A stretch of DNA of 64,000 bases from Candidatus Dormiibacterota bacterium (GCA_963718525.1 OY970355.1:1824001-1888000); one strand, 5' to 3'. Counted from the first letter of the stretch, positions 35,506-54,250 are shown. The notes: generated from the letters alone by a model not told the origin. Numbers and translations are program-made.

Positions 35506-35563
35506 TCGGCTGAAAGTATGGCCGGTGTCAGAGCGGGGGACACAGGCGGGCACGCGCCGCTGC

Positions 35564-35575
35564 GAACGTCTGTTC
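35564..35575. promoter_or_regulatory. Putative LexA (SOS) box GAAC-GTCT-GTTC
   Basis: Matches the Firmicutes/Actinobacteria GAAC-N4-GTTC consensus. It is followed at once by TATACT and a leaderless ATG at 35588. Confidence 0.7.
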
Positions 35576-35587
35576 TATACTACTGGG

Positions 35588-36802
35588 ATGTGTGATGGCG
35601 AGGACAAGCTGGGACAGCTCGAGCGGCTCCTGCAGGCGGTCGAGGCGTTCGTGGCCTCGCCGGGGGGTGAGATCAGCGGGTTCGACCTCGGCGAGCGTCT
35701 GATCCGCTTTCGCCACGGCATTGACCTCCTCGAGCTCCGCTTCGCCCACGAGGCTGCGACCTTTGCCTCCAGCGATGAGTACGAGGTCCAGGGCTCGAAC
35801 TCCCCGATCGATTGGGTCCGCCACCAGTGCCGGATGTCCAGCACCGCTGCGGCTCGTTCGATCGCCACCGGGGAGGCGGCACCCCAGCTTGCGGCCAGTG
35901 TGGTGGCGCTCCAGGAGGGCCGGATCGGGTTCGCCCATCTCTCCCTGCTCGCGGGGTTGGAGCGGGCCGCGGCGCGCACCGGGCAGAGCTTTGCCGAGGG
36001 TCCCCTCCTCGAGCTTGCCCTCGAGCACTCGGTCGGCCGCTTCGTCAAGGACTGTGAGCACGCCCGCCATGCCGCCGATGCCGCCGCGGTGCTCGCCGAG
36101 CACGTCGATGCGGTCGACGCCCGCTCTCTCGAGCTCACCACCTGCGAGGACGGCCGGCTGGCCGTGCACGGCGTCCTCGACCCGGTCGGCGGGGCCACGC
36201 TGCGGGTGGCCCTGGCACCGCTGTGTGGCCGCTCGGGGGTGGGCGACGAGCGACCCCGGGCTCGCCGCCTCGCCGACGGTCTCGTCGAGCTCGCCATGCA
36301 TGCCCTCGACCACGGCTTCACCACCGAGGGTGGGACGACTCGGACCCATCTCCAGCTCACCGCCTCGGTGGAGACGGTGATGGGGCTGTCCGGTGCGCCC
36401 GGTGGCGAGCTCGAGTTCGCCGGGGTGGTCCCGGCGGCCACGGTGCAGCGGCTCGCCTGTGACGCGAGCATCCGCCGGGTGCTGCTCGGTCCCGACTCTG
36501 CGGTGATCGACGTGGGCCGGGCGCTGCGGGTGCCCTCGGGTGCGGGACGTGCCGCGCTCCGGGTCCGCGACCAGGGCTGCGTCTGGCCGGGCTGTGAGCG
36601 TCCCTCGTCCTGGACCAACGCTCACCACGTCCTCCACTGGGGACACGGCGGGGAGACCAACCTTGAGAATCTGGTCCTGCTCTGCCACCGCCATCACTGG
36701 AAGGCGCATGAGGGTGGCTGGCAGGTGGTCAGGTCAGAGGAGGGGCGAATCCTGACGATCCCGCCGTCGCATAGGTACCAATCGTGGACTCGCGCCGGCT
36801 GA
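35588..36802 (+). CDS. DUF222-domain HNH endonuclease (13E12-repeat-like)
   Basis: RLACDA, DVGR, RDQGCVWPGC and AHHVLHW..GG.TNLENLVLLCHRHH...H. Confidence 0.92.
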   Translation: MCDGEDKLGQLERLLQAVEAFVASPGGEISGFDLGERLIRFRHGIDLLELRFAHEAATFASSDEYEVQGSNSPIDWVRHQCRMSSTAAARSIATGEAAPQLAASVVALQEGRIGFAHLSLLAGLERAAARTGQSFAEGPLLELALEHSVGRFVKDCEHARHAADAAAVLAEHVDAVDARSLELTTCEDGRLAVHGVLDPVGGATLRVALAPLCGRSGVGDERPRARRLADGLVELAMHALDHGFTTEGGTTRTHLQLTASVETVMGLSGAPGGELEFAGVVPAATVQRLACDASIRRVLLGPDSAVIDVGRALRVPSGAGRAALRVRDQGCVWPGCERPSSWTNAHHVLHWGHGGETNLENLVLLCHRHHWKAHEGGWQVVRSEEGRILTIPPSHRYQSWTRAG

Positions 36803-37249
36803 AGTCGGAGTCATGGAGGACTTTGGCGGTTGCGCAGTCGTCTTCGCTTGTCTCGGTGGTTGGATGGGTCTTGACGCGGCGGCCAACGCGGAAGGCGCGA
36901 TAACGGGTTGTGCCTCGACGAATTCGAGGTAGATCTGGTCGATCTGCTGATCGGTGAGGTCGGCCGAGGGCCGCTCGACCTTCACAGCCTCAAGAACCCT
37001 CAGGAGAATGCTCAAGTACTGGTAGAGCGGCCAGCACCTGCGGTCGCGGATATGGTTGGCGAGCCGAGCAAATTCCGGCTCCTTGGTGCGCGATCGCGAT
37101 CGCCGTCCCCTACCGGGGTTCGTCCGGCGTCGGCACCCGCCGCGAGATCGAAACTCGCTTGTGACGAGATCGAGCGACGGTAACGCCGTATATACCCCAT
37201 CCTTGACACCCAGAGCGGTTTCAATTCACCAGACCGGAAGGGAGCCACG

Positions 37250-37780
37250 ATGACCCCGATTCGATTTCTCATTGGCACGGCACTCGTCGGCATGGTTGCC
37301 GGATGCGGTGCGGCCATCGTCAATGCCCCGGCAGGGGCCACGGCTGCACCGACCGCAGCGGCGACGGCGGCTTCGACCGTTCCGACGGCGGTTCCGACCG
37401 CTGTCCCCACCGCCGCACCGACTCCCGTGCCGACGGCGGTTCCGCCAACGCCTAAGCCGACCCCGGTCGTGACGACCGCTATGGCCAATGCGGCTGCGGC
37501 TGCCGCGCAGTATCTCGCCGAGGGCACCGGATTCTCGAAAGCCGGTTTAATCGCGCAGCTGGATTCCTCGTACGGTGATGGGTACACAGTTGCAGAGGCG
37601 ACCTACGGGGTCGATAGCCTGAACGCGAATTGGGATGCTCAAGCGGCTTTGGCGGCCAAGGCGTACCTCGCCACCGGGACGTTCTCGCGGGCCGCCATGA
37701 TCGCGCAGCTTGATTCCGCGTACGGGGATCAATTCACCTACGCGCAGGCTGTGTACGGCGCGACGGCTGCGGGGCTCTAA
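37250..37780 (+). CDS. Ltp-family surface lipoprotein
   Basis: Lipobox VAGC, a Pro/Thr/Ala linker and two 'A..YL....FS....IAQLDS.YGD' repeats. Confidence 0.8.
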   Translation: MTPIRFLIGTALVGMVAGCGAAIVNAPAGATAAPTAAATAASTVPTAVPTAVPTAAPTPVPTAVPPTPKPTPVVTTAMANAAAAAAQYLAEGTGFSKAGLIAQLDSSYGDGYTVAEATYGVDSLNANWDAQAALAAKAYLATGTFSRAAMIAQLDSAYGDQFTYAQAVYGATAAGL

Positions 37781-37919
37781 ACCAACTCGACGTTCGCCAC
37801 TACACGCAAAAGTAGTAGCCCGACAGAGCCTCTGAGACACGTCGAAGCGTCGAGTGCACTCTCGATCGTGTGACGCGCTACCCAGCCCCCTCATGGGCTG
37901 CCAGCAGCCCCCGCAGCGA

Positions 37920-37961
37920 TGCCCCGCCCAGATCGAAGGCGCGTGCCCCGCCCAGATCGAA
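37920..37961 (+). repeat. 18-bp direct repeat tgccccgcccagatcgaa, two copies
   Basis: Copies at 37920-37937 and 37944-37961. Confidence 0.8.
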
Positions 37962-38089
37962 AGAGCTGCTGACGCGTTCGACGCGAGAGTAGCGAATCCA
38001 CAACGACTGGCCCTCCCCGGAGCAGCACGTTGCCGCCGGCGCCTTCCCGCTCGCTACGACCCGACTTCTCAGGGCGCAACTGACTGGGC

Positions 38090-38111
38090 AACCTCGTCAA
38101 TCGTTAATACA
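38090..38111 (+). repeat. Junction motif Y, copy 1 (AACCTCGTCAATCGTTAATACA)
   Basis: 22/22 identical to 47934-47955. Confidence 0.85.
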
Positions 38112-38318
38112 ACCCCCTCCGGATTCGCGTGGCGGGGCGAGGCCGAATCTACAGCTGAAGGGGTCGTGGCCAGTCTCTGACACGGGCCCCCCGCTGGCTT
38201 GGGGGCGCACCGCCGCAGGCGGCCGATCCGTCCCACGTCGGAGCCTGCATCCGAACCGGGGATCGTGGGCTGGATCTCGGCGGGCGGCGCGGCTGAGCTG
38301 TGACAGAATTGCGCCGCG

Positions 38319-38780
38319 ATGCCCACCGTACGCGTCAGTGTCAACGGTGCGACGCACGAGCTCGAGGTCGAGCCGCGCGACCTCCTCGTGCACGTCCTGC
38401 GCGAGCGGCTTTCCCTCCACGCGACGAAGGTCGGCTGCGACACCTCGTCGTGCGGTGCGTGCACCGTCCTGCTTGATAGCGAGTCCGTCAAGTCGTGCAC
38501 GGTGTTCGCGGTGCAGGCGGACGGCACCGCCATCACGACGCTCGAGGGACTCGCCCACGGTGGCGACATGCATCCGGTGCAGCGAGCCTTCCATGAGAAC
38601 CACGGCCTGCAGTGCGGCTTTTGCACCCCGGGCATGGTCATGGCGGCGGTCTCGCTGCTGCGCGAGAACCCGCATCCGACCGCGAGCGATGTGCGCCAGG
38701 CGCTCGAGGGCAACATTTGCCGTTGCACGGGATACCACAACATCGTGCAGTCCGTCCTCGCCGCCGCCGCGACGGGCTGA
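38319..38780 (+). CDS. CoxS/CutS-family [2Fe-2S] subunit
   Basis: GCDTSSCGACTV, QCGFCTPG and CRCTGY. Confidence 0.93.
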   Translation: MPTVRVSVNGATHELEVEPRDLLVHVLRERLSLHATKVGCDTSSCGACTVLLDSESVKSCTVFAVQADGTAITTLEGLAHGGDMHPVQRAFHENHGLQCGFCTPGMVMAAVSLLRENPHPTASDVRQALEGNICRCTGYHNIVQSVLAAAATG

Positions 38781-38787
38781 CCCCGCC

Positions 38788-39648
38788 TCAGCCGGTTGCC
38801 CGGTCGAAGGCCTCCTGGACGGTACGACGCGTCAGCACGCGGGCAAGGTGACGTCGAAATTCCGCATCGGCGGAGAGATCGCTTACGGGCGATGTCCCCT
38901 CTGCCGCCAGCTCGGCGGCGCGGGGGATTGAGCCGGCGGCGGCGCCGGCCAGCGCCGCCTCGACCCCCGCGGCGCGCAGTGGGGTCGGGCCCATGTTCGC
39001 GAGCCCCACGACCGCACGGCTGATCTCCCCGTCCCGACGCTCGATGATCGCCGCCACTGCGACCGTCGCCCAGTCCTGCGCACGGCGGCGGAACTTCGTG
39101 TACGCCCAGCCGTGCCGGCGCGGCGGCACGGGGATGCGCACCTCCGCGATCAGCTCGCCCGGCCGCAACGACGTTTCCAGGAACGAAACGACGAGTTCGT
39201 CGACGCCGAGCTCTCGCCGGCCGTCGCGACCGTGGACGACGATCGTGGCATCGAGCGTGCGCAGCGCCGTGGGCACGTCGCCGGCAGGATCGGCGTGCGC
39301 CACCGCGCCTCCGATCGTGCCGCGATGGCGAACCTGCGGATCGCCGATGAGGCTGGCGACATACGCGAGGAGCGGGACATCTTCGCGCAGAACGGCGGAT
39401 GTCGCCACGTCATGATGTCGCGTCAAGGCGCCGATGGCCACGGTCTCTCCCTCCCGGCGCGTGTACGCGAGCTCGCCGCGCAGCGGGCCGATGTCGACGA
39501 GCGTCGACGGCCGCGCCATGCGCAGGCGCATCAGCGGGATGAGAGACATGCCGCCTGCGAGTGCTTTGGCCTCGTCGTCATGGGCGAGCAGCGCCGCCGC
39601 CTCATCGAGGCTGGAAACGCGACGGTACTCGAACGGTGCCGGAATCAC
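38788..39648 (-). CDS. CoxM/CutM-family FAD subunit
   Basis: IPAPFEY, LAGGMSLIP and RGTIGG. The GTGA start overlaps the large-subunit stop. Confidence 0.92.
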   Translation of the reverse strand: MIPAPFEYRRVSSLDEAAALLAHDDEAKALAGGMSLIPLMRLRMARPSTLVDIGPLRGELAYTRREGETVAIGALTRHHDVATSAVLREDVPLLAYVASLIGDPQVRHRGTIGGAVAHADPAGDVPTALRTLDATIVVHGRDGRRELGVDELVVSFLETSLRPGELIAEVRIPVPPRRHGWAYTKFRRRAQDWATVAVAAIIERRDGEISRAVVGLANMGPTPLRAAGVEAALAGAAAGSIPRAAELAAEGTSPVSDLSADAEFRRHLARVLTRRTVQEAFDRATG

Positions 39649-41963
39649 GCGGTCGCCTGAGCATGCGCCGCTGCCAGCGCGGCCACCACGCGCTGCGGCG
39701 AGCAGGGCATGTCGATGTGGCGCACGCCGGCGTGTGACAGGGCGTCGACGACCGCGTTCTGCACCGCCGGCGTCGCCCCGATCGCCCCGGACTCGCCGAT
39801 CCCCTTGGCTCCGAGCGGGTTGATCGGCGTCAGGGTCTCCATGCTGTGCAGCTCGAATGCGGGAAGCTCGGCGGCGGAGATGATCTCGTAGTCGGCGAAT
39901 GTCGAAGTCAGGAGGTTCCCGTCGGGATCGTACGTGATGGACTCGAGGAGCGCCTGGGCGCTGCCCTGCGCGATACCGCCGTGCAGCTGCCCCTCGGCGG
40001 CCACGGGGTTGACGATGCGCCCGGCGTCGTCGACCGCCACGAAACGCCGCAGGACGGTGCCACCGGTCTCGGTGTCGACCTCGACGACCGCCAAGTGCGC
40101 GCCGAACGGAAACGTGCCTCCCCGAACGGCGAATACGTGGTCGATCGCGAGCGCGCCACGCGCAGCGGCGGCCAGGTCCTTCCAGGTTTTGGCATCGAAC
40201 GGGGCACCGGCCACGTGGAATCGGCCGCTCTGCCGATCGAAGAGGACGTCGGCGACGTCGGCCTCGAGCGCCTCGCCGGCGAGGTGACGGGCGCGTTCGA
40301 CGAGCAGGTCGGCGGTCTCGACGACGGCATTGCCAATGGTCTGTACGGAGCGCGATCCGGCGGTGAGGTTGCCGGACCCGATGACGTTTGTGTCGCCGCA
40401 GATGACCTCGACGTCTTCGACCAGCACGCCCAGGCGGTCGCTCGCGATCATCGCCCACGTCGTCGCATGCCCCTGCCCCTGCGGTGAGGAACCGAGGCGC
40501 ACCAGGACGTGACCGTCGGGCCGCATCTCCATCGCGGCCGGCTCGGCGCCCGGAGCGAGCGACGTCACCTCGACGTAGACCGCCAAGCCCAGGCCAAGCT
40601 GCACCGGTCCTCCCTCGATGCGGCGGTGCTCCTGCTCGGCCCGCAGCGAGGCGTAGCCCAACTCCTCGAGCAGCCGGTCGAGCGCGGTCGCATATGCGCC
40701 CGAGTCGTACACCGCCGGCGCCAGCAGCATGCGCGCCATTGGGTCGACGTCGTCGTCGGGTCCGAACGTGCGGCCTGTGCGGGTCGCGAACGGGAACGCG
40801 TCGTCGGGGATCACGTTGCGCCGGCGCACGTCGGCGGGGTCCATGCCGATGCGCGCGGCGAAGAGGTCGACGGCGCGCTCGATGGCGGCGGCTGCCTCGG
40901 GTCGACCTGCACCGCGGAAGGCGATGACGGGGGCCGTCGTCGTCACGACGCTCCGGCCGTGTATCGCGATGTTCTCGATGTCGTAAACGCCCTGCGCCAT
41001 CATGCGGGTCAGATAAGCGAGAAAGGGGGCGACCGCCGGGTAGGCACCCGAGTCCTGGATGATGTCGAGCCGATACGCCTCGATGCGCCCGTCGCGGCTG
41101 CCGCCGATAGTGATGCGCTGCACCTGGGCGCGGCCGTGACCGCCGGCGAGCAGGTTCTCGCTGCGCGTCTCCGTCCAGCGCACGTCCCGGCCGATGTGCC
41201 GTCCTACCCAGGCAACGAGCAGCTCCTCGGGCATGAGATCCGTCTTCGTCCCGAAGCCGCCGCCGACGTCAGGGGCGATGACCCGCACCGCATCCAGCTC
41301 CACGCCGAGAGCGCCTGCCAGCTCGCCGCGGACGGGGTGGACGCCCTGCGTCGAGACCTGGAACGTCAGGTGGCCATCGCTCCATGAGGCCGCCGCGCCT
41401 CGCGTCTCGAGAGGCGACGCCGATACGCGCTGGTTGACGATGCGCTGCTCGACAACGACCTCGCACCGCGCCAGGGCGTCGGCAACGTCGCCGACGGTGA
41501 ACTCGTCGACGAGGTTGGTGCCCGCCTCCGGGAACAGCAGCGTCGCGTCGTCGAGGGCTGCCTCCGGGTCGACGACGGCGGGGAGCGGGACGTAGTCGAC
41601 CTGCACCAGCTCGGCGGCGTCGACCGCCTGCGTACGCGTCTCGGCGACGACGATGGCGACGGCCTCGCCGGAGAAGCGCACCGTGTCGCGAGCCAGCCAT
41701 GGCCGGGCCATCGCGGGGTGGCCGCCGAGCCCGGGAGGCGCCGGCGGGATGTCGACGTCAGCGGCGGTGAGCACGGCGAGGACTCCGCTCGCCGCCGCCG
41801 CCTGAGACGTTTCGATCCCCCGGATGCGTGCGTGAGCGCGGGGGGAGCGGACATAGACGATGTGGGCGGCGTCAGGCAGCTCGATGTCGTCCAGATACGT
41901 CCCGCCGCGAGTCAGCAGGCGGGGATCCTCGGTGCGCAGGACTCGCGTGCCCAGGATGCTCAT
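39645..41963 (-). CDS. Xanthine dehydrogenase/CoxL-family molybdopterin subunit (form II-like)
   Basis: GGGFG, AFRGAGRPEA, QGQGH and GAKGIGE. It lacks the form I AYxCSFR motif. Confidence 0.92.
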   Translation of the reverse strand: MSILGTRVLRTEDPRLLTRGGTYLDDIELPDAAHIVYVRSPRAHARIRGIETSQAAAASGVLAVLTAADVDIPPAPPGLGGHPAMARPWLARDTVRFSGEAVAIVVAETRTQAVDAAELVQVDYVPLPAVVDPEAALDDATLLFPEAGTNLVDEFTVGDVADALARCEVVVEQRIVNQRVSASPLETRGAAASWSDGHLTFQVSTQGVHPVRGELAGALGVELDAVRVIAPDVGGGFGTKTDLMPEELLVAWVGRHIGRDVRWTETRSENLLAGGHGRAQVQRITIGGSRDGRIEAYRLDIIQDSGAYPAVAPFLAYLTRMMAQGVYDIENIAIHGRSVVTTTAPVIAFRGAGRPEAAAAIERAVDLFAARIGMDPADVRRRNVIPDDAFPFATRTGRTFGPDDDVDPMARMLLAPAVYDSGAYATALDRLLEELGYASLRAEQEHRRIEGGPVQLGLGLAVYVEVTSLAPGAEPAAMEMRPDGHVLVRLGSSPQGQGHATTWAMIASDRLGVLVEDVEVICGDTNVIGSGNLTAGSRSVQTIGNAVVETADLLVERARHLAGEALEADVADVLFDRQSGRFHVAGAPFDAKTWKDLAAAARGALAIDHVFAVRGGTFPFGAHLAVVEVDTETGGTVLRRFVAVDDAGRIVNPVAAEGQLHGGIAQGSAQALLESITYDPDGNLLTSTFADYEIISAAELPAFELHSMETLTPINPLGAKGIGESGAIGATPAVQNAVVDALSHAGVRHIDMPCSPQRVVAALAAAHAQATA

Positions 41964-42275
41964 CGTGCGCAGCGGACCTTAGCGCAGCGCGCCTGCGGCA
42001 CGCAGCTAACCGAGGTCGGCACAGCTCCGGCGCCAGCTGGGGGTTGAAACCTTCTCAGCATGCCTTTGTGGACTCGCTGCGTGTTGGCAGGTGGTCATCC
42101 GCATCATGCCGGCGCAACCAACCTTGCCAACCTCGTTCATCGCTGATACAACCCCCGGAGAGGCGGGCGAACGAGTTGGGTCGAGTGCCATCGCGGACAT
42201 CACGCAAGGGTCCGGGGAGGATGCAGGATTTCGCGGTGGTGTGCTGGCCGTTTCTGTCGAGAAATGGATGCAGTC

Positions 42276-42518
42276 CTAGTAGACGTGAGTCGTCCGGACC
42301 ATCCTCACCAAGTCCGCGATCCGTGAATCCACGGCAACCCGCGTTGCACGACCTGCCAAGTCGCTCAGTTCACGATCAATGTGATCGAGGATCGCGCTCA
42401 CCTCCTCATCATCGAGCGGAAAGCCGACCACCGCGGCAGCGGCATCGACGTCCTCACTTCCAATGGTGACGGGGATCCGCACCTCGCGGGTCATCGCAGT
42501 GCTAACCATGGCGAGCAT
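42276..42518 (-). CDS. Small hypothetical protein
   Basis: Amphipathic, protein-like composition. The start is uncertain. Confidence 0.45.
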   Translation of the reverse strand: MLAMVSTAMTREVRIPVTIGSEDVDAAAAVVGFPLDDEEVSAILDHIDRELSDLAGRATRVAVDSRIADLVRMVRTTHVY

Positions 42519-42746
42519 CGTCATCCTCCAGTGCGGGCTGAGAGGTGTGACGGGCTGTTTACGCCCGTTTTCTCTGGAATCCATCGTTTCCGAACGTGCG
42601 CCGATGCACAAGAGCAGAACGTCCCGTTTGGAAGAACGGGAGGAGAGCCGATTGTCACACCGGCCACTGTCCTAACGATGAGGAGGGCTCGTCGTCTGGC
42701 GATCTGATGTCGCTGGTACCCGCGCGGCGGGGCCGACGTGGTTTGG

Positions 42747-42865
42747 TGAGCTCTGGGTTTTGTGGAGTTGAGTCATTGGACTGTCATGCTGCAGTCCACC
42801 AGGAGGACGGCATGGGGCAGACGGGGCTATCCGGCGGAGAGTTTCGGTAGCGTGTCCTTGCCTGG
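42747..42865 (+). mobile_element. IS3-family left-end remnant
   Basis: TGAGCTCTGGGTTTTGTGGAG resembles an IS3 IRL. It is followed by AGGAGG, ATG 42812 and a degenerate M-G-R-R-G-Y-P-A-E-F-R OrfA-like start with indels and a stop. Confidence 0.5.
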
Positions 42866-42881
42866 TAGCAGCTAGGTGGCC

Positions 42882-42903
42882 AACCTCGTCCATCGTTAGT
42901 ACG
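42882..42903 (+). repeat. Junction motif Y, copy 2 (AACCTCGTCCATCGTTAGTACG)
   Basis: 19/22 to the other copies, likewise followed by xCCCC. Confidence 0.7.
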
Positions 42904-42946
42904 ACCCCTCGAAGACCGCCGGGTGCGATTAGCGGCGACTCCTCGC

Positions 42947-43942
42947 CTATAAGTGAGCCGTGAGCCAGGCAACGATCGCCGTGACGGTGTCGGGGTCCAG
43001 TGAGGTGTCGGCCGCGTTGTACATTTGCATCGCCTGCTCCTGCACGAGCTGCTCACGCGGTCGCGGCTCATATTTCAGCACGTGATTGGCGTTCTCGGGG
43101 AAGAGGAAGCTGACGTCGATCAGCCCCGCTGCGGCGCGCTGCAGGGGCTTCACGTCGGCGTGCCAATCGACCTGTAGATCTTTTTTCCCGATGACGATGA
43201 GCACGGGCACGCGCACCTCCCTGAGCGGTGCTGCCGCGTCCGCGGTCCAGAGCTCACGGGCAAATGGAAGGTTGGCGGGGGTCTCCAGGGCCGATATCAG
43301 ATAGCGCACGCCCTCCGGCAGGGCCGGATCTGGGGTGGCGGGCTCACCCGCAAGAAATCTAGCGACCGCGGCGTCGTACAGGCGGAGCAGCTGCTCGCCA
43401 TTCGGGACGCCCTTGGCTTGGGCTGCAAGCTGGGACCGGGTGACGGCACCCACGGTGCGGCCGGGCGGCCCTGTCAGCACCAGGCCGGCCAAGGGGATGC
43501 CGGGGTCATGAACCTGGTAGTTGAGAGCGTGGAGGGTCCCTTCGCTATTGCCGAGGGCGAAGATCCGATCCCGCCGGACGTCCTGTTGCTCGGCAAGGGT
43601 GCGCACCGCCCCCGCGAGCTCATCGACGTGGCTCTGCATGGTGATCGCGCCGATCAGGAGGGGGATCGTCTCGCGGACATGGGGGCCGGAAGCGCGTTTG
43701 TCGTAGCGCAGTGAGGCGAAACCAGCTCGCCCGAGCGCCTCGGCGAGCAGGCGACCGCTGCCATTGGTCCCGGGAAGGAGTCGGGAGTTCCAGTCGCGGT
43801 CCGTCGGGCCACTGCCGGCAACGAACACGACCCCCGGGAAGGGACCGGCTCCCTCCGGCTTTATCGCGGAGCCATGGACAGTGGTGGGGCCAAGCGGCCA
43901 GCTGACCTCCATGCTCTGCGAAGACGAGGTGCTATCAGTCAT
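42947..43942 (-). CDS. Alpha/beta hydrolase
   Basis: GSGPTDRD, RYDKR, nucleophile elbow GNSEG, G..D.QV and NH, with a GGAGG RBS. Confidence 0.9.
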   Translation of the reverse strand: MTDSTSSSQSMEVSWPLGPTTVHGSAIKPEGAGPFPGVVFVAGSGPTDRDWNSRLLPGTNGSGRLLAEALGRAGFASLRYDKRASGPHVRETIPLLIGAITMQSHVDELAGAVRTLAEQQDVRRDRIFALGNSEGTLHALNYQVHDPGIPLAGLVLTGPPGRTVGAVTRSQLAAQAKGVPNGEQLLRLYDAAVARFLAGEPATPDPALPEGVRYLISALETPANLPFARELWTADAAAPLREVRVPVLIVIGKKDLQVDWHADVKPLQRAAAGLIDVSFLFPENANHVLKYEPRPREQLVQEQAMQMYNAADTSLDPDTVTAIVAWLTAHL

Positions 43943-44027
43943 CGTGCAGTCCTCCAGATGCTGGCGTTCGCCGCGGTCGGTCCTCGTAGGTCGCCGATGC
44001 ATTCGAGCCGGGTGTGGCGCTGCTGGT

Positions 44028-44777: not shown

Positions 44778-45691
44778 CGCGTTTGCGCCTCCGCTTTCGC
44801 TGCGGAAGCGGTGAGCGCAAGGAATGCCGCGTCGAGGGTCGGGCGGATTGGCGAGAGTGAGATCACCCGGGCTCCTACGTCGGCAAGGAGCATGGGCAAC
44901 CGGAGCTCGACCTGATCGGCGGCTGTGGCGTGAAGCTCGATGCGCCCTGGTGCCGTCTCGGCGACCTCCAGCACCCAGGGGGCTGCCCTGAGGCGCGGTA
45001 TGAGCCGATCTGCCGGCGGGCGAACCTCGACCTGCCAGCGGTTCCCACTCACGGTCGCCAAGAGGTCGGGGGTCGTGCCCTGGAAGATGAGGCGGCCGTC
45101 GACCAGCACGCCGATGTCGCTGCACAACTCCTCGACCCCGGAGAGGTCGTGGCTCGAGATGACGACGGTGCTCTGGCCGGCCAGCGAGGCGAGGAGATCC
45201 AGAATGTCCGCGCGCCCCAGCGGGTCGAGGGAGGCCACCGGTTCGTCGAGCAGCAGGATCCGCGGCTCGAGGACCAGCGCAGCGCTCAGGTTGAGACGGG
45301 TGGTCATGCCTCGGGAGAAGCCGCCAACCCGCCGATCCGCTGCCTTCGTGAGGCCGACCCGGCCGAGCGAAGCGGACACGGCACCCTGATCTGCGCGTCC
45401 GCCAAGTAGGCTCACGGAGAGGGCCACCACCTCAGCCGCGGTCAGCCAGGGTTCGAACTCGGCGACGTCCGGGCAGTAGGCGATGGCGGAGTGGGGCGAA
45501 GCCAGATGGACCTCACCGGCGCTAGGACGACGGAGCCCCGCCAGAATCTCGAGGAGTGTCGTCTTGCCCGCTCCGTTCGGTCCAATGAGACCGTAGAGCG
45601 CGCCCGTCGGCACCTCCAGCTCGACGCCGGCCAGCGCGGTTGTCGTGCCGTACGTTTTGTCGAGTGCGGTCGTGGAAACGGCGATGGTCAG
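44774..45691 (-). CDS. ABC transporter ATP-binding protein
   Basis: GPNGAGKT, FSRGM and LLLDEP. The start is probably CTG within a CTGA overlap. Confidence 0.92.
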   Translation of the reverse strand: MTIAVSTTALDKTYGTTTALAGVELEVPTGALYGLIGPNGAGKTTLLEILAGLRRPSAGEVHLASPHSAIAYCPDVAEFEPWLTAAEVVALSVSLLGGRADQGAVSASLGRVGLTKAADRRVGGFSRGMTTRLNLSAALVLEPRILLLDEPVASLDPLGRADILDLLASLAGQSTVVISSHDLSGVEELCSDIGVLVDGRLIFQGTTPDLLATVSGNRWQVEVRPPADRLIPRLRAAPWVLEVAETAPGRIELHATAADQVELRLPMLLADVGARVISLSPIRPTLDAAFLALTASAAKAEAQTR

Positions 45692-45900
45692 CGGGGTTTC
45701 CCGACCGCGAGGTAGACGATCCCCGCCAACGGCGAGATGGTCACGCAGAGGATCGCCCACGCCCAGCGGGGCAGGTACGCGGCTCTCTTCGCTCTGGCGA
45801 TGTCGACCAGGCAGAAGACGTCGAAACCGACGACCACCACCAACAGAGGGACGAGCGCGGCCACCAGGGTCGCGCTTGCGATGGCGAGCATCGTTATCAT
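45688..45900 (-). CDS. PLDc_N-like small membrane protein
   Basis: The pattern CLVDI...PRWAW......PLAGIVYL. Confidence 0.8.
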   Translation of the reverse strand: MITMLAIASATLVAALVPLLVVVVGFDVFCLVDIARAKRAAYLPRWAWAILCVTISPLAGIVYLAVGKPR

Positions 45901-45908
45901 CTTCGTGA

Positions 45909-45941
45909 ATGATAGCAGAAGTGTGAACATTGTTCTAGGAT
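45909..45941. promoter_or_regulatory. Overlapping divergent leaderless promoters with a central dyad GAACA-T-TGTTC
   Basis: TAGGAT at 45936-45941 precedes ATG 45948. TATCAT on the minus strand (45914-45909) precedes the start at 45900. The dyad is at 45925-45935. Confidence 0.55.
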
Positions 45942-45947
45942 GGGCTC

Positions 45948-46643
45948 ATGGCCGATGCGAACCTGCTGCTCCACCCCATCCGCCTCCGGATCATCCAGGC
46001 GTTTCTGGGCGATCGCGCGCTGACCACCGGCCAGCTCAACGCCGAACTGCCGGACGTGCCCCCGGGGAGCCTGTACCGGCATGTCGGCCTACTTGTGAGC
46101 GCAGGCGTGCTCAGTGTCGTGGCCGAGCGCCGGGTTCGTGGCGTCGTAGAGCGCACCTACGTGCTTCGCGAGAGCGCCGCCTATGTGAATCCCGAGATGA
46201 CCATCGAGGAGCACCGCCGTGCGTTCATGACCTTCATCGCAGGGCTCCTCGGTGACTTCGACCGCTACCTAGCGCTCGGCCAGCCCGACCTGGTGCGTGA
46301 TGGAGTCGGGTATCGCCTCGGCGCGATGTGGCTGTCTGACGTTGAGTTCACCGAGTTCCTTCGAGACCTGGCTCGCGTAATCCAGCCTCGGATGGCGAAC
46401 GCTCCCTCGCCGGCGCGCCGGCGCCGCGTAGTGGCTGGGGTGACGTTGCCCACGTCCCCTGCACCCAAGACACGCTCAAGGGGCCGACAAAGGAAGGACC
46501 GAACGAGCCGTAGAGCTGAACTCATGAAGCTGTCCGTGGGCCGGCCCTGCCCCGTAATGGAGGTTATGGCGTCAGGCCTGCCCTACGCCAAGCGAACCGA
46601 CCATTGCTCACGCCAGTGTGGTCAACCTACATTTGTGGATTAA
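45948..46643 (+). CDS. ArsR-like winged-helix regulator
   Basis: LLHPIRLRI, SLYRHV..L and RGVVERTY. The C-terminal tail looks like read-through and stops inside motif X. Confidence 0.85.
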   Translation: MADANLLLHPIRLRIIQAFLGDRALTTGQLNAELPDVPPGSLYRHVGLLVSAGVLSVVAERRVRGVVERTYVLRESAAYVNPEMTIEEHRRAFMTFIAGLLGDFDRYLALGQPDLVRDGVGYRLGAMWLSDVEFTEFLRDLARVIQPRMANAPSPARRRRVVAGVTLPTSPAPKTRSRGRQRKDRTSRRAELMKLSVGRPCPVMEVMASGLPYAKRTDHCSRQCGQPTFVD

Positions 46644-46651
46644 CGGGCACC
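46625..46651 (+). repeat. Junction motif X, copy 1 (ACCTACATTTGTGGATTAACGGGCACC)
   Basis: 25/27 identical to 47866-47892. Confidence 0.85.
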
Positions 46652-46712
46652 CCAGCGCGCACTCACAACACCCGAGCCGAGCGGTCGCGCGTGGCAGGAG
46701 GATGATGCTTCC

Positions 46713-47156
46713 ATGTCATCGCACTCTCGTTGGGGGATTAGTCCGCGACGCAACATCGAGGCTGAATGCAGGCGCCGGGGGAAGGCCGAAGTGGTTGCGG
46801 GGTGCATCGCTCTCTTCGATGGGGACACGCGCGACCGCAGGCTTATCGTCGCCCTGGGAGGGCCGCCCGCGCGGGAGATGCTGATCGGCAACTCGCGCGC
46901 TGACCTTCTGCTCTGGACGCGGGTTTGGGCGGTCAGGGGCTTACTGTGGGCCTGGGACGAGTCGGCGCGCGACGCGCTCCGCGCCGCCCTAGACGACGAC
47001 GCCTGGCGAGTCCGGGAGATGGCCGCTAAGGTGGTCGCTCGGAACCTCCTCGGCGACGTCTTGAGCAGCTGTGCAAACCTGCGCAACGACCCCGTAGCTC
47101 GAGTGCGGCAGGCAGCCGGGCGATCGGTTGCCCGGCTGACCCTCTCTAGAGCCTGA
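46713..47156 (+). CDS. HEAT-repeat-containing protein
   Basis: ALDDDAWRVREMAAK and LRNDPVARVRQAA, with AGGAGG upstream. Confidence 0.8.
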   Translation: MSSHSRWGISPRRNIEAECRRRGKAEVVAGCIALFDGDTRDRRLIVALGGPPAREMLIGNSRADLLLWTRVWAVRGLLWAWDESARDALRAALDDDAWRVREMAAKVVARNLLGDVLSSCANLRNDPVARVRQAAGRSVARLTLSRA

Positions 47157-47332
47157 TGTGCCACCTCTGTTAAACGACCCACGGCACGTCCGCCTCGCTG
47201 ACGCCAGCGTGCCGTCAACACACTTGAACTGAGGAAGCGAACCACTCCAGAAGCGGCCGGGACCGGAGCGACGAAATCGCAACTCTGAGTGGTCCGAATG
47301 CCGCGAAAGACGGGAAGACCTGAACTCGGAAG

Positions 47333-47566
47333 CTACTGGAACGACGGTATGAACCTAATCGTCCTCTGGCCCGCAGCAAAACCGAGTCGGTTCTCGATCA
47401 ACTCGGGATGCGGGTCCGCGCGCTCCTGACCCTCGGCGAAGGTGCCCTGGTGGGGGTAACGCGCTCGCCCCATACCCGATGCGAAGTCGCCCCGCTCACC
47501 GGCGAGCTCTGGATGGTGCTCGGATATCTCTTGCCCCACGGCAAAGGTTCCCTCGTGCTTGTGCAT
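47333..47566 (-). CDS. Small protein (77 aa) with four FAxG(Q/M) repeats
   Basis: GGGAG RBS, GTFAVGQE / GDFASGM / GTFAEGQE / LGFAAGQR, and HPEL twice. Confidence 0.6.
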   Translation of the reverse strand: MHKHEGTFAVGQEISEHHPELAGERGDFASGMGRARYPHQGTFAEGQERADPHPELIENRLGFAAGQRTIRFIPSFQ

Positions 47567-47865
47567 GTCAGTCTCCCAGGACCCTGAATGACCGTCCAGC
47601 GCCGGGTCCCACAAGCCGACCAGCCGGTAGTGGTGGAACAGCCTTGAGCGTACGAAGGTGCGGTCACGACTTCCGTGCGGTGGCGAACATAAGCGAACAG
47701 CGTCGTCGACTCCGATCGGGGAAATCGATCGGGGAGGCCTCACTTGACCCGCCAGGAGCGCCTCTGTCGGCATACCTCGTGGGGTTGACGCGCTTGCCCA
47801 ACAGAGCGTGCTGTCACCTGAACCGGTCCGGGACGTGCCTGGCACCGGTCGAAGAAACCATTTGG

Positions 47866-47892
47866 ACCTACATTTGCGGATTGACGGGCACC
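47866..47892 (+). repeat. Junction motif X, copy 2
   Basis: ACCTACATTTGCGGATTGACGGGCACC, running directly into the HNH fragment. Confidence 0.85.
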
Positions 47893-47942
47893 ACGTCCTC
47901 CACTGGGGGCACGGCGGGGCGACCAACCTTGAGAACCTCGTC
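47889..47942 (+). pseudogene. DUF222-HNH gene fragment 1 (HHVLHWGHGGATNLENLV)
   Basis: 50/54 nt identical to 36623-36676. Confidence 0.9.
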
Positions 47943-47955
47943 AATCGTTAATACA
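47934..47955 (+). repeat. Junction motif Y, copy 3
   Basis: Identical to 38090-38111. Its first 9 nt are the N-L-V codons of the fragment. Confidence 0.85.
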
Positions 47956-48029
47956 TCCCCCAGAGCCCGCCGAGTGGGATCTGCTTCGGTTGGGCGAGGA
48001 ACTCCTAGTGCTCGCGCCTTGCGACGACC

Positions 48030-48958
48030 GTGAATCCCGGCCTGCCGACGTCTGCGGTTGGCGGTCCGGGCCAAAGAGGAAACAGCCTCCGACGTCGCTA
48101 TTCGGGTTCATTCGCCGACACGATCAGTCGGACTGGCGATCCTGTTGGTCTTCAGCCGTCAGGCTGGCTGATGGATTTGGCGCTGGTGCAGCACCCGCTG
48201 ATTGGGCAAGGTTGGTGCTGTCCGGCGATGCGATGGTGACGATTCGGGGCGCCTGCTCGACGCGGATTCTGTCCTGGAGGCCCTCAATCCCGCCCGTCAG
48301 CCAACCGGGAACACTAACAGCGTCGATGCCCAGGGGACGCCGCGCCCGGTGATCCATCCTGATGAGGGTTCGCGTGAGCCACTCGAAATCCTCATAGACG
48401 CCGTGACCTTGTTCAGCCCGCCACTGCTGGACATAGGGCTCAAGGACCGTCCACCAGATAAAGATGGCACTCCCGAACAAACGACAGAGCAGCTTGATGT
48501 CAAGGTGCCCGCTCCGGCTGAGCGAGCCCAAGCCTTCAAAGTAGTTGCCAACGGCTATTCCGGCCCCGGCAGGGATCTCGCGCTTATCGCGGGCGGCGAC
48601 GAGGATCGCGAGTCGATGGCGAAGAATGCGCTCGTCGTCGAACTGTTGGGATAATTCATTGACCAGCTCGACCGCGCGCCCGCTCCGGGCGAGTCGGACC
48701 TGGCGGTATATCGCGATGAATGTGATCGCAAGGGCCGTGAACTGGAGCGCGGCCCAGAACCACTCCGAGCCCGGTCCGATGAATGCCATCCCCTTGGTGT
48801 TGATGAACGTCACGTCCATACCTCCGTTGCGCTAGCAGGATGGGCGGGACGATACAAATCGCGGGATCCGCAAGCAACGAGGGACGCGAGCTAGCCTCGG
48901 AGGTCAGCACCAGCGTCGAGTTCAGTGTGGCAGCCCTATAGTGAATCCCGGCCTGCCG
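48030..48958 (+). repeat. 18-bp direct repeat GTGAATCCCGGCCTGCCG flanking one gene (motif Z)
   Basis: Perfect copies at 48030-48047 and 48941-48958. Confidence 0.8.
48124..48819 (-). CDS. Membrane-anchored hypothetical protein, DUF4760-like
   Basis: GGAGG RBS, an N-terminal TM ending IYRQVR, and GNYFE.LG. Confidence 0.65.
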   Translation of the reverse strand: MDVTFINTKGMAFIGPGSEWFWAALQFTALAITFIAIYRQVRLARSGRAVELVNELSQQFDDERILRHRLAILVAARDKREIPAGAGIAVGNYFEGLGSLSRSGHLDIKLLCRLFGSAIFIWWTVLEPYVQQWRAEQGHGVYEDFEWLTRTLIRMDHRARRPLGIDAVSVPGWLTGGIEGLQDRIRVEQAPRIVTIASPDSTNLAQSAGAAPAPNPSASLTAEDQQDRQSD

Positions 48959-49142
48959 GGCGCGATGTCGACTCCCCAGAGGCTAGTGTCGGGCGGTCTC
49001 AGCGCCGCAAGTCAAGCAGCGACCTGGACGCTGACGCTTCGCCGAACAAGAGATCCCCTCCACGCTGACAGTCGCTGGGCCGTCCTCCTCGGCCGAGAGG
49101 GGCTTACAAGAGGTCGGGGCCCCTCTTGCTGGCGAAAAGCAT

Positions 49143-49715
49143 CTAAGGATCGGGATTTGGCCCGGACGACGGCCGCCATTGACGCCTGATCAGCCCGTAT
49201 ACCCACGAGTCCGACACCTCGCCGTTCACGACGCAGTCCTCCCGCAACGTCCCTTCACGCACGAATCCGAGCTTTTCCAGGACGCGGGCAGAAGCCGCAT
49301 TGCGCGTATCGGTCTCGGCCTGGACTCGATTCAGGTCCAGCGTGTCAAATGCCCACTGCAGCAAGGCGCGCCCGGCCTCCGTCGCGTAGCCGTGACCCCA
49401 GGCCGCATCGTCAAGGCAGAAGCCCATCGACGCACTGCGGTAGTCAGGGTTCCACCGGGTCAGACCGCACCATCCGATGAACCCATTGTCGGAAATACGG
49501 TCCAGGGCCAGCCGCGCCCCGCTGCCGTCCTCTTCCATGCGCCCACAATCCGCGACAAAGCGCTCGGCCCGCGCACGTTCGCTCCAGGGCGGCGCATCCC
49601 AGTAGCGCAGCACGTAGGCACTACTGTGCAGCGCGAAGAGGGCATCCGCGTCCGCGCTGGTGAAGGGGCGCAACCGCAGGCGAGCGGTTCGCAGTGTCGG
49701 GGTGGGCAAGGACAT
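49143..49715 (-). CDS. GNAT N-acetyltransferase (RimJ/RimL-like)
   Basis: TARLRLRPF, WGHGYATEA and NAASARVLEKLGF. Confidence 0.92.
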   Translation of the reverse strand: MSLPTPTLRTARLRLRPFTSADADALFALHSSAYVLRYWDAPPWSERARAERFVADCGRMEEDGSGARLALDRISDNGFIGWCGLTRWNPDYRSASMGFCLDDAAWGHGYATEAGRALLQWAFDTLDLNRVQAETDTRNAASARVLEKLGFVREGTLREDCVVNGEVSDSWVYGLIRRQWRPSSGPNPDP

Positions 49716-49855
49716 TCGTGCCATCTTGCCTTTCCATGAGCGAAGGCGGGGCAACCGCCTACGCGAGCCCGAGACCCGGACCCCGCTGAGAGTCCAATCT
49801 ACAAGAGTGCAGCTCACGACAGGCGAGGTCCGGAACCCGGGCAAGCCAGATCGGC

Positions 49856-49940
49856 AATCTGGTCCAGCTCTGCCACCGCCATCACTGGAAGGTGCATGAG
49901 GGCGGCTGGCTGGTGTCAGGTCCGAGGAGGGCCGAATCCT
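49856..49940 (+). pseudogene. DUF222-HNH gene fragment 2 (NLVQLCHRHHWKVHEGGW...)
   Basis: 79/86 identical to 36668-36753 (6 substitutions, 1 deletion). Confidence 0.9.
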
Positions 49941-52755
49941 ACAACGCCCTGCCACGGCCACCAAGCAGGTCTTGCAACTGATCGAGCGGCATCGGACGCG
50001 CGAAGAGGAATCCCTGCGCGTACTCGTAGCCGATCTCCCTGAGGGTGGTCGCCTGCGCCTCGGTCTCGATACCCTCAGCGACGATCGATGCTCCGATCGC
50101 CATGCTGAGTTCAAAAATCGCCGCTGCCATCGATCGTGCCTCGGAGCGCTCGGCAACGTCGATGACAAAAGCGCGATCAAGCTTGATGACATCGACGGGG
50201 ACGTCTTGAAGCCGGGCCAGCGACGAGAATCCGGTGCCGAAGTCGTCGATTGCAATGCGTACCCCTCGGCTGCGCAGGCGCTCGAAGGCCGCACGAACCG
50301 CAGCCAGGTCATCCAGGAACGCACTCTCCGTGACCTCGATCGTCAGAGCCGTCGGGGGAAGTCCAGTAGCCTCAAGGATGCCGTCAAGCCACGTGCTGAA
50401 CTCACCAGCCATCAGCTGGCGGACGGAGACATTGACGCTGACCTTGAGATCGTGGTCGCGGTACAGGCGAGTCGTGTCTGCACATGCGCGTTTCATCACC
50501 CACTCGCCGATTGGGACGATGAGCCCGGTGGCCTCAGCGATTGGGACGAACTCCGCAGGCGAGATCGCTCCCCGCACCGGGTCATCCCAGCGCAGCAACG
50601 CCTCCGCCCCGACGATGCGGTGGTCAGTGAGGCTGACGATGGGCTGATACACGAGCCGTAGCGAGCCGGCCTGGAGCGCAGCCCGGAGACCGCTCTCCGT
50701 GGTCAGGCGATGCTGGAGGCGGCGGCGGGACTCGGCGTTGTAGATTCTCGTCTCGCTCCTGCCGGCGCGTTTCGCCTCGTGAAGCGCCGAATCGGCGTCG
50801 CGGAGAAGATCGACCGACGAGCCATCGGCGTGCGCGAACGCGATCCCAATCGATGCGGTGATGGTCACGGGGTGTCCATCGACCCAGACCACTTGAGGCA
50901 GAACCCGGCAGATCTGTTCCGCGACGTCGTGGGCGTCGCGCTCGGATGCGGCGCCCGGCACCACGACCGCGAACTCATCGCCACCGGGGCGCGCCACCAT
51001 GAGATCGGGGAGACCGCCCGTCAGGCTGGATGCGACCTCGATCAGGACCCTGTCGCCGACCTCGTGGCCGAGGCTGTCGTTGATCACCTGGAGGTCGTCG
51101 ACGTCAACCAGGAGGAGGGTGCAGGGCCGGTGCTGAGAGGCAAGGACGGAATCGAGATGCTCGGCCAGAGCGGCTCGAATCGGCAGACCGGTGAGGGGAT
51201 CGTGCCGCGCGATGAAGAGAGCCTGCTGTTCGGAGCGATGACGCTCGGTGACGTCAGTCACGACGGCGAGGACGCCGATGACGGTACCGCCCGCGTCCCG
51301 GCTGGGCGTGTAGAAGGCTTGGTAGAAACTGCCCTCCTGCTCGACCGTGGCCGTGACTTCCTCGCCGCCGAGCGCTCGGTCGACGAATGCGGCCCCGATG
51401 CCGTTGCCGGCGACAGCATCCAAGCGACGCCCAACGAGGAGCTGGATCGAGCCACCCTCGTACAGCCGGCCGGCGCCGTCGACCAGGCGGCCTTCAACAT
51501 CGAACGAGGCGACCAGCATCGGAACGGCCGCGAGGACCGTCTCGAGCAGGGCTCGGCTGTGCGAGCCGGCGGCCTCGGCGGCCACCTCGACCGAGATGTC
51601 TGTGGAAACTGAGATGACGCCGGTGATCTCCCCTGCATGATCACGGATCGGGGCATGCACTGTCGCGAAGGTCTTGCCTGAGTAGACCGTTCGCGTCGAG
51701 GACTGCTGCCCGTCGAGAGCGGCTTGAAGCGCACGCAGTGTGGCCTCGTCATCGATGACCTCGCGGATGTCGCGGCCGAGGAACTCGCTGGCGCGTCGGC
51801 CGGCCTGAGCGATCCCGCCACCGGCAAGGAAGGTGAAGCGCAGATCGCGGTCAACGGTGGTCACCGAGACCTGGGACGAGGCCATCGCCGTCTCGAGCAC
51901 CATCCGGCTCTCCCGCGTGGCGTCCTCCGCGGCCCGCTGCGAACTCAGCTCCTGTACCAGCACCAACAGCTGGCTTACACGGCCGTCCTTATCGCGGACC
52001 GCGCACACGCTGTCGAGCACAGGCACGAGGTGGCCGTCGCTGCATGGAAAGTCGCGTTCCACGACGTATGAGTCGATCTCGCCGCTCAGGAGGCGATCGG
52101 TGGGCGTCCGATCCCACGCGCCGCCGTGCCGGAAGAGCCGATCCCCGTCGCCACCCAGGAGTTCCTCTCGCGTGTAGCCCATCAGGGTGCAGAGGACCTG
52201 GTTTACCGCGGTGATGCGGAATCCAGGAATCTCCATGGTCAGCTGCCCGATCGAGGCATCCTCGAACATGCGCTGGTAGCGATTCATATCCTCGAGGAGG
52301 GCATGCTCGGCCGCCTGGGCACGACGCCGCTCGGTCACATCCTCGATGACCATGACGCGGCCGGCGAACGAAACGTCCCCGCCCTCAACGTGCATGCTGC
52401 GGACCCGACCCCAGACGACACTCCCGTCGGGTCGTTGGACGCCCCAGTCCTCTTCGGTTCCGGGCGCGAGGGCGATCGCCCTGCGCTCGGGGTACGTGCC
52501 GTCCTCGGACACCGACGCCGGGGCGAGCACCTCCGTAGCGCTGCGACCGAGGAGGTCGTCGCGGGTCCGACCGAAGAAGTGGCAGGCGGCGGTGTTGATG
52601 CGGACAAAGCGCTGGTTCGCATCGAGGACGACAAGAGCGAGGGACGACTCGTTGAAGGGCTCGACGAGATCGGAATTGCTATTGAGAGGTACTCCGGCGT
52701 CGTGAATGACTGGAGTGGTCGCATCGCCGTCCCGAGCCACGGTCCTGTCGTCCAT
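49939..52755 (-). CDS. Multi-PAS diguanylate cyclase/phosphodiesterase (GGDEF-EAL)
   Basis: About four PAS domains, HDPLTGL, intact GGDEF, EALLRW and IDDFGTG. Confidence 0.94.
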   Translation of the reverse strand: MDDRTVARDGDATTPVIHDAGVPLNSNSDLVEPFNESSLALVVLDANQRFVRINTAACHFFGRTRDDLLGRSATEVLAPASVSEDGTYPERRAIALAPGTEEDWGVQRPDGSVVWGRVRSMHVEGGDVSFAGRVMVIEDVTERRRAQAAEHALLEDMNRYQRMFEDASIGQLTMEIPGFRITAVNQVLCTLMGYTREELLGGDGDRLFRHGGAWDRTPTDRLLSGEIDSYVVERDFPCSDGHLVPVLDSVCAVRDKDGRVSQLLVLVQELSSQRAAEDATRESRMVLETAMASSQVSVTTVDRDLRFTFLAGGGIAQAGRRASEFLGRDIREVIDDEATLRALQAALDGQQSSTRTVYSGKTFATVHAPIRDHAGEITGVISVSTDISVEVAAEAAGSHSRALLETVLAAVPMLVASFDVEGRLVDGAGRLYEGGSIQLLVGRRLDAVAGNGIGAAFVDRALGGEEVTATVEQEGSFYQAFYTPSRDAGGTVIGVLAVVTDVTERHRSEQQALFIARHDPLTGLPIRAALAEHLDSVLASQHRPCTLLLVDVDDLQVINDSLGHEVGDRVLIEVASSLTGGLPDLMVARPGGDEFAVVVPGAASERDAHDVAEQICRVLPQVVWVDGHPVTITASIGIAFAHADGSSVDLLRDADSALHEAKRAGRSETRIYNAESRRRLQHRLTTESGLRAALQAGSLRLVYQPIVSLTDHRIVGAEALLRWDDPVRGAISPAEFVPIAEATGLIVPIGEWVMKRACADTTRLYRDHDLKVSVNVSVRQLMAGEFSTWLDGILEATGLPPTALTIEVTESAFLDDLAAVRAAFERLRSRGVRIAIDDFGTGFSSLARLQDVPVDVIKLDRAFVIDVAERSEARSMAAAIFELSMAIGASIVAEGIETEAQATTLREIGYEYAQGFLFARPMPLDQLQDLLGGRGRAL

Positions 52756-52881
52756 GCGCTGGACTTAGCACTTAACGAGGTCGGCACCGTCTTTCGCCGC
52801 AACTGTCACCGAGTCGGTGGCGGCGAAGCGCGGCGCGTCACCGCGAGGCGATCACTGCCCGGCCCTTACCTCGCGTGACAT

Positions 52882-54126: not shown

Positions 54127-54250
54127 CGGCGCAGCGTACACGTCTGGAAAGTGCCGTCAAGCACCCCGACGCTTGTATTCGCACCACAAGGGCCGGCATG
54201 ACGCGCAACACACGTCGAACCCCTGCGCGGCGAGGAATGCCGCGTCCGTG

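Follow-up and report, generated by a model that had tools for sequence, protein, structure and literature searches.

The closest described relative of the locus analysed here is phiRv1 of Mycobacterium tuberculosis, a prophage-like element that is reported to lie inside REP13E12 and to use the serine recombinase Rv1586c (PMC9317374). A second source equates REP13E12 with an HNH endonuclease/DUF222 gene (PMC10589994), and these two sources together with a third appear to depict a large serine integrase with a multi-copy DUF222/HNH repeat as its attachment site attB (PMC9317374, PMC10589994, PMC3783163), so that one genome would offer several docking sites. Stacks of such insertions are known as well: according to section 2.3 of PMC5704250, tandems form by integration, decay to a cis-mobilizable element (CIME) and renewed integration. 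Here we analyse a DUF222-HNH gene and the stack of unrelated gene modules that follows it in Candidatus Dormiibacterota bacterium (GCA_963718525.1), whose genome is a single 3.34-Mb contig of 66% G+C. The window, that is, the whole stretch of DNA analysed, comprises 64,000 nucleotides (OY970355.1:1824001-1888000); positions are counted from its first letter unless given as genome positions.

A first-pass annotation, made by a model from the sequence alone, had read the locus as a cassette-capture system in which cargo modules with recurring border motifs, X and Y, are stitched together at active-site codons of HNH genes. We consider it likely that the border motifs are half-sites of two families of large serine integrase that dock in DUF222-HNH genes, and that the stack arose by insertion and decay. 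The identity of the sites and the positions of crossover can be read from the junctions, the integrases are encoded elsewhere in the genome, and relatives lack the island. The analogy to phiRv1 and REP13E12, which the annotation had drawn, is apt in that both involve a serine integrase and a DUF222-HNH target. The differences are that the host here is a Dormibacterota-type soil bacterium, that the integrase-bearing elements carry Rep_trans or Prim-Pol together with defence-like genes and not phage genes, and that the target gene has two sites, each used by its own integrase clade, with integrase-less stacks being common. The literature on REP13E12/HNH and on serine integrase/DUF222 attB, supplements not covered, yielded no description of such arrays or of two sites. 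Mobile-DNA scars of this sort are known, but their stacking here is unusual; what we believe to be new is an explanation of X by a second clade, the finding that the locus can be empty or hold the HNH gene alone, the larger extent of the island and the lack of a second half-site at internal junctions.

Border motifs in the window and the genome

A mismatch search with a shuffle control confirmed the 22-mer Y at 38090, 42882 and 47934 with at most 3 mismatches (100 shuffles gave an expectation of 0). One more copy, Y2 at 42129, with 4 mismatches and placed after a decayed HNH remnant, had been overlooked; all four are co-oriented. The 20-mer X was likewise found where it had been annotated, at 46625 and 47866 (0 expected by shuffling), and so were the two HNH gene pieces noted near 47889 and 49856: 47884-47942 is 90% identical to 36618-36676 of the intact gene, and 49856-49915 is 93% identical to 36668-36727. 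The genome as a whole contains 13 copies of Y (at most 5 mismatches) at 7 loci and 3 copies of X. Altogether, 33 distinct Y sites were collected, 15 of which have no HNH sequence on their left. Contigs of an independent metagenome run bridge Y1-Y3 (36718-43149), X1 (43821-47526) and the unit of X2, a 59-nt HNH piece and Y4 (47513-48760), indicating that the array is not a misassembly. As the annotation had stated, the window holds no integrase: the Recombinase (2), Phage_integrase (11) and Resolvase (3) matches of the genome all lie outside it.

Site 1 and the clade-1 integrases

Two large serine recombinases with Resolvase, Recombinase and Zn_ribbon_recom domains are encoded at genome positions 2467627 and 1001844. 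These are the two intact genes of clade 1 (465–479 amino acids) in this genome, both outside the window, and they reside in two further islands, here called islands 2 and 3. The start codon of each lies a few nucleotides from a conserved P arm (GGGTCATATTAGC...), which is followed by AA and then by HNH 3′ coding sequence (N-L/V-V-L-L-C-x-x-H-H). At the opposite end of islands 2 and 3 an HNH 5′ part is joined via AA to Y; attL and attR thus flank the element, attB lies inside the HNH gene, and only the dinucleotide is shared. The layout of integrase, P arm, AA and HNH 3′ end recurs at loci of the genus (G017, G020, G057). The island-2 P arm matches the reverse complement of Y at 14–20 of 26 positions, in register with the AA, which 0–1 of 2,000 shuffles reach, and in the window the attL sequence (..GAG-AA-CCTCGTC, at 47934) and the attR sequence (..GGC-AA-TCTGGTC, at 49856) have AA alone in common. 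Integrase adjacency, the inverted repeat of Y in the P arm and the AA common to attL and attR together mark Y as the predicted integrase-distal (P′) half-site of a large serine integrase, and the AA of the H-N-H Asn codon as its crossover. DUF222-HNH (REP13E12-type) genes would thereby serve large serine integrases as a chromosomal docking site, with clade 1 exchanging strands at the AA of the conserved Asn codon (E-N-L-V) and the P arm, directly before the integrase start codon, coming to abut the HNH 3′ end after integration.

Four loci have Y immediately after a DUF222-HNH gene or pseudogene that is cut just past the N-L-V codons; in one of them, identity to the gene of the window is as low as 32%. 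Because HNH genes down to this identity are cut after the same Asn codon, the same base has been hit independently, and the annotation's proposal that the HNH coding core is a reusable attachment site stands. Outside the genus, we kept 80 loci, mostly from Actinomycetota and with integrases 53–65% identical, of which 78 were assessable. An Asn-led HNH C-terminal coding sequence adjoins the integrase start in 54 of the 78, and 24 have no HNH flank, including 12 loci of the Mycobacterium group. Y9-x-R11-x-S13-S14 is invariant in the family alignment, and the nearest phage matches (about 32% identical) are annotated as serine integrases. The role of multi-copy DUF222-HNH genes for mobile DNA is therefore probably that of standard landing pads for a large, cross-phylum serine-integrase family. 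A minimal element at G020:C4 was considered as a clean example of attL and rejected, its left (distal) end being rearranged.

Islands 2 and 3 differ in content. Island 2 (L001, genome 2461501-2481500) carries, besides the integrase, a Rep_trans initiator, an OLD-family nuclease (AAA_21 and TOPRIM), a TIR-domain protein, transposases of the IS256 and IS110 families and a DUF4760 gene. Island 3 (L002, L003; genome 1001826-1026925) carries the second clade-1 integrase, a Prim-Pol protein with PriCT_1, a small resolvase, a DUF499 protein with HEPN_Swt1 and an SNF2-type helicase.

Site 2 and the clade-2 integrases

X, an HNH piece of about 59 nt and Y occur as one unit in 7 of the 40 relatives searched. 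X and Y are conserved in this unit, while the HNH stretch between them varies at wobble positions and comes from different HNH subfamilies, as expected for independent genes. At two loci (G045:C7 and G017:C8) an HNH 5′ part that breaks off at residue 346–350 is followed by an integrase of a second clade, which shares about 45% identity with clade 1; the junction reads ..ACC-AAY-GCC-CA, then the arm, then the integrase ATG. The reverse complement of this proximal arm matches the 11 X copies at 13–20 of 28 positions, in register with the CA, against a shuffle mean of 7, and 0–25 of 2,000 shuffles reach these values. An inverted repeat of the attP type around a 2-nt crossover was thus found for both clades. 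On these alignments X appears to be the integrase-distal arm of clade 2. This clade would insert in the orientation opposite to clade 1, and its strand exchange would take place about 45 bp upstream of site 1, at a CA within the codon for the first His (N-A-H-H). The unit of X, HNH piece and Y would then be an HNH gene hit by both clades. The landing pads here would therefore offer two crossover points within the catalytic motif, separated by 45 bp, and base-precise attB, attP, attL and attR for two uncharacterised integrase clades could be raw material for genome-engineering tools. Two further X-HNH pieces lie downstream of the island-2 attR, at genome positions 2466185 and 2463091.

As short conserved termini present at 7 loci, X and Y might also be the ends of an insertion sequence (IS) or a miniature inverted-repeat transposable element with loose targets, and IS256- and IS110-family transposases do occur inside island 2; a random-target IS and misassembly were both pitfalls that the annotation itself had named. 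We give next to no weight to such ends or to an assembly artefact. X and Y are not mutual inverted repeats at the ends of one unit, and no such terminal pair was found; each is part of a different site. Nothing longer than the 2-nt core is duplicated at the target, and HNH sequence is always met at the same bases. The island open reading frames (ORFs) that were scanned, to which this check was limited, include no DDE transposase, and contigs of other runs span the junctions.

The locus in relatives

The MST and DeoC genes that enclose the stack are direct neighbours in seven relatives, with a gap of 4–20 nt in G003, G004, G005, G006 and G051 and adjacency also in G020 and G052. In an eighth relative, G012, the order is MST, an intact HNH gene, 195 nt and DeoC. 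The segment 35506-54250 is therefore missing from seven relatives and represented in the eighth by the HNH gene only, indicating that it is an island of 18.7 kb; the span originally annotated, 35588-49941, was too narrow.

The HNH gene has a history of its own. The DUF222-HNH unit is present in triplicate (window 35551-36795; genome 5-1226 and 539402-540646), at 98.5–99% identity, relative genomes contain 2–24 HNH matches each, and relatives carry the gene in other slots around MST, which argues that the gene itself moves. The intact gene at the left edge of the island is uninterrupted, with both docking sites free. Being uninterrupted, and standing alone at the locus in one relative, this gene (35588-36802) is not the one into which insertion took place.

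A mobile, multi-copy nuclease gene, with three nearly identical copies and differing slots around MST, raises the alternative that the breaks are the work of the HNH nuclease, acting much like a homing enzyme, and that repair at its own active-site codons takes up the cargo; the annotation had named the nuclease beside a trans-acting recombinase as the possible catalyst. The location of the breakpoints inside the HNH motif would suit this idea. However, each border motif mirrors, as an inverted repeat, an arm adjoining a serine integrase gene, with a 2-nt crossover in register; even between HNH genes that share no more than 32% identity the junctions agree to the base, and integrases adjoin HNH sequence in 54 of 78 loci across taxa. 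We therefore hold breakage by the nuclease to be very improbable and retain the other half of the proposal, a recombinase acting in trans, with the large serine integrases at 1001844 and 2467627 as the probable catalysts.

Two further observations concern the island and its surroundings. The sequence 47943-49855 was considered as a recurring cassette and rejected: the whole unit was never found in relatives, only its DUF4760 gene (70–78%) and its first approximately 100 nt. To the left of the MST gene, an ABC-transporter module (32682-34941) is also variable: in about 10 relatives a conserved gene that ends near 32622 here is directly followed by MST, and other relatives have the module elsewhere, for example at G012:C4, 1.4 kb from an X-HNH-Y unit.

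Growth of the stack

The island can be described as an intact HNH gene plus co-oriented, integrase-less modules that would be bordered on the left or right by distal arms, the whole ending in an orphan HNH 3′ piece. We suggest that it grew by repeated site-specific insertions into HNH copies or remnants, after each of which integrase-proximal parts were lost, that is, by tandem accretion and decay. The modules are most likely fixed now, unless mobilised as a block. This is the kind of history described, in the section cited above, for CIMEs: integrase-less, decayed modules with att-derived repeats share one target gene and related integrases occur elsewhere. The stack here is in direct orientation, and the genome contains three intact HNH sites and two clade-1 integrases. 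Yet a CIME keeps both attL and attR, whereas the internal junctions here keep the distal arm only (Y as P′, or X), and the cases that section describes are mostly tyrosine-recombinase elements at gene ends. A second parallel is the staphylococcal cassette chromosome (SCC/SCCmec), in which the large serine recombinases CcrAB act at a single conserved target gene, rlmH/orfX, and tandem stacks include recombinase-less elements with repeated site borders. CcrAB is promiscuous. Recombinase lineage and target differ from those here, and SCC leaves its target gene intact, whereas the HNH gene is split.

Several observations weigh against accretion and decay as the full account. The left-edge HNH gene is uninterrupted, and the empty site in seven relatives has no HNH gene. 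HNH-adjacent clade-2 integrases occur in only 2 of 151 genomes, and no complete clade-2 element was seen at the two loci examined (G045:C7 and G017:C8), where both contigs end before the expected X end. The left arm of the attR-like junction in the window is unlike the integrase-proximal P arms. A free attP was not found, a strict pattern of P-arm motif, 11 N and Y giving 0 matches in metagenome contigs. At the 15 Y junctions that have no HNH sequence on their left, comparison of the left arm with the P arm and with the reverse complement of Y gives 3–11 matching positions of 26 at offsets of −3 to +3, about the level of chance. Lacking a second half-site, these junctions are not complete recombination (attP) sites, and canonical recombination of attP with attB alone does not produce them. 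Two related searches were also made. A looser free-attP pattern gave 17 metagenome matches, none near an integrase or HNH sequence and none with a right arm continuing as Y, which we therefore treated as chance, and the Y pattern had 0 matches in viral contigs.

Such junctions leave some room for the integron-like process that the annotation had proposed, in which small, circular, integrase-less cassettes, each with a Y and a short proximal motif, are inserted serially at the HNH-side junction by serine integrases acting in trans, which would make the stack grow and shuffle. All three integrase-bearing elements with an intact distal end have extra co-oriented Y between the HNH 5′ junction and the body, with 3 copies of Y at the distal side in island 2, 2 in island 3 and 3 in G017:C165, and in relatives successive copies are separated by units of 0.7–1.5 kb. 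Sequence of about 100 nt after Y, 87–93% identical, is joined to differing left neighbours and cargo, and the sole recurring feature of the otherwise unrelated left arms is a 10-nt motif, approximately CTRRNTGRCC, beside the AA, recognised by eye only. Like an integron, the locus shows a co-oriented stack of unrelated cargo at one anchor, with the recombinase not on the modules.

However, capture would require a reaction between two attL-type sites, which is not canonical for serine integrases, and the left arms lack a second half-site. There is no attC-like bipartite site, as those 15 left arms, at 3–11 of 26 against either half-site, show. No IntI tyrosine recombinase is at hand: of the 11 Phage_integrase matches of the genome, 0 fall in the window, island 2 or island 3. 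Both strands carry cargo genes, some modules having several genes and a regulator, without a common layout, cassette orientation or promoter logic. In contigs of four runs we saw neither the joint expected from loss of a module at AA or CA nor one of a circle or an empty site, although contigs cannot show rare circles or other rare forms. One joint from 36537 to 47888 (one contig, with a side of 31 nt) and one low-depth record joining the X-HNH piece to Y3 were seen, and both are ambiguous among other loci, other organisms and real variants. A conserved 60-nt stretch left of Y1, termed P4, was proposed as the second half-site and rejected by arm matching; it is also found without Y in one relative (G042).

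We therefore regard serial capture of circular cassettes as improbable. The more general proposition, that HNH genes are a dual docking platform for two serine-integrase lineages, at whose integrase-distal junction integrase-less modules with no more than a distal half-site and the 10-nt motif are captured serially by a non-canonical serine-integrase reaction widespread in Dormibacterota, seems to us about equally doubtful. If active capture were true, it would be a new recombination mode for serine integrases and a functional counterpart of integron cassette capture. We prefer insertion by two integrase clades followed by decay. The P4-type stretch in the relative (L157, at G042:C64) lies beside tRNA-like sequence.

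Organization of the island

The variable island (35506..54250, about 18.7 kb) lies between the MST/DinB gene start and the DeoC aldolase stop, as delimited by synteny in relatives. Its first gene is the intact DUF222-HNH gene of 404 amino acids (35588..36802, plus strand; Pfam DUF222 5e-18, HNH 2e-4), in which the predicted site 2, the CA of the first His codon (36623-36624), and the predicted site 1, the AA in the Asn codon of N-L-V (36668-36669), are both unoccupied. The stack downstream of this gene occupies 36796-54250. Pfam bears out the annotated cargo: intact DUF222 and HNH, Ltp, molybdopterin dehydrogenase subunits (the 'Cox-like' genes), alpha/beta hydrolase, ABC ATPase, HTH_20, HEAT, DUF4760 and GNAT. 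Gene calling by GC3 did not discriminate. At HNH pads of this uncultured soil phylum, accessory genes with defence, regulatory and metabolic roles appear to pile up.

Module 1 (36803..38065) contains an Ltp lipoprotein gene (37250-37780, plus strand; Pfam Lipoprotein_Ltp 1e-21) and unassigned ORFs. It is followed by junction 1 (38066..38117, plus strand), in which a non-HNH left arm ending in ..CTGACTGGGC meets the AA (38090-38091) and the putative P′ half-site Y1. Between the reverse complement of Y1 and the island-2 integrase-proximal arm, 19 of 26 positions agree (a score attained by 0 of 2,000 shuffles); for the left arm the agreement is 6 of 26 with the P arm and 4 of 26 with the reverse complement of Y.

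Module 2 (38788..41963, minus strand) encodes the FAD-binding and MoCo-binding subunits of a molybdopterin dehydrogenase (Pfam FAD_binding_5, CO_deh_flav_C, MoCoBD_1/2, Ald_Xan_dh_C). A 61-nt stretch upstream of these genes (41924-41984) is 93% identical to G017:C165 5100-5158, which there lies just past a Y and in the orientation opposite to that in the window. Junction 2 (42095..42156, plus strand) consists of a decayed HNH remnant (..H-H-A-G-A-T-N-L-A-N-L-V), the AA at 42129-42130 and Y2; its left arm matches the B arm of the intact gene at 17 of 26 positions. Junction 3 (42858..42909, plus strand) again has a non-HNH left arm, ..CTAGGTGGCC, before the AA at 42882-42883 and Y3.

Module 4 (42947..46643) comprises an alpha/beta hydrolase and an ABC ATPase on the minus strand and an HTH_20 regulator on the plus strand, all assigned by Pfam. 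Next comes X1 (46625..46649, plus strand), a presumed clade-2 distal half-site with its CA at 46648-46649, after which the sequence is not HNH; compared with the reverse complements of the two integrase-proximal arms of clade 2, it agrees at 15 and 17 of 28 positions, which 1 and 0 of 2,000 shuffles reach. A gene for a HEAT-repeat protein (46713..47156, plus strand; Pfam HEAT, HEAT_2) separates it from the composite unit at 47866..47961 (plus strand), in which X2 (CA 47889-47890) is followed by the HNH piece of about 59 nt (G-H-H..E-N-L-V), the AA at 47934-47935 and Y4. X2 matches the same two reverse complements at 15 and 20 of 28 positions, and to the left of Y4 the arm agrees with the B arm at 24 of 26.

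The last module (47962..49841, minus strand) holds a DUF4760 gene (48124-48819) and a GNAT acetyltransferase gene (49143 to about 49716), both by Pfam; the first approximately 100 nt after Y4 are 87–93% identical to post-Y sequence in three relatives. It ends at the attR-like junction (49842..49941, plus strand), where a left arm, ..CAAGCCAGATCGGC, leads through the AA at 49856-49857 into the frameshifted orphan HNH 3′ end. This left arm and about 85 nt upstream of it are 78% identical to genome positions 2951602-2951702; that counterpart of window 49770-49872 is joined to Y and not to an HNH 3′ end. Beyond the span first annotated, the island continues with genes for a PAS-GGDEF-EAL protein (49939-52755, minus strand) and a flavin monooxygenase-like protein (52882-54141, minus strand), both recognised by Pfam and both absent from the locus in relatives.

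An Rfam scan of 35000-50500 at E values up to 1 gave 0 matches. Many copies of Y are nevertheless followed by a hairpin with the conserved loop GTGAGATCA, whose stems differ from copy to copy yet stay complementary (for example CCGCCGA..TCGGCGG). Examples lie at window positions 47956-48000 and genome positions 2477930-2477890, and the hairpin could be a binding site or a terminator.

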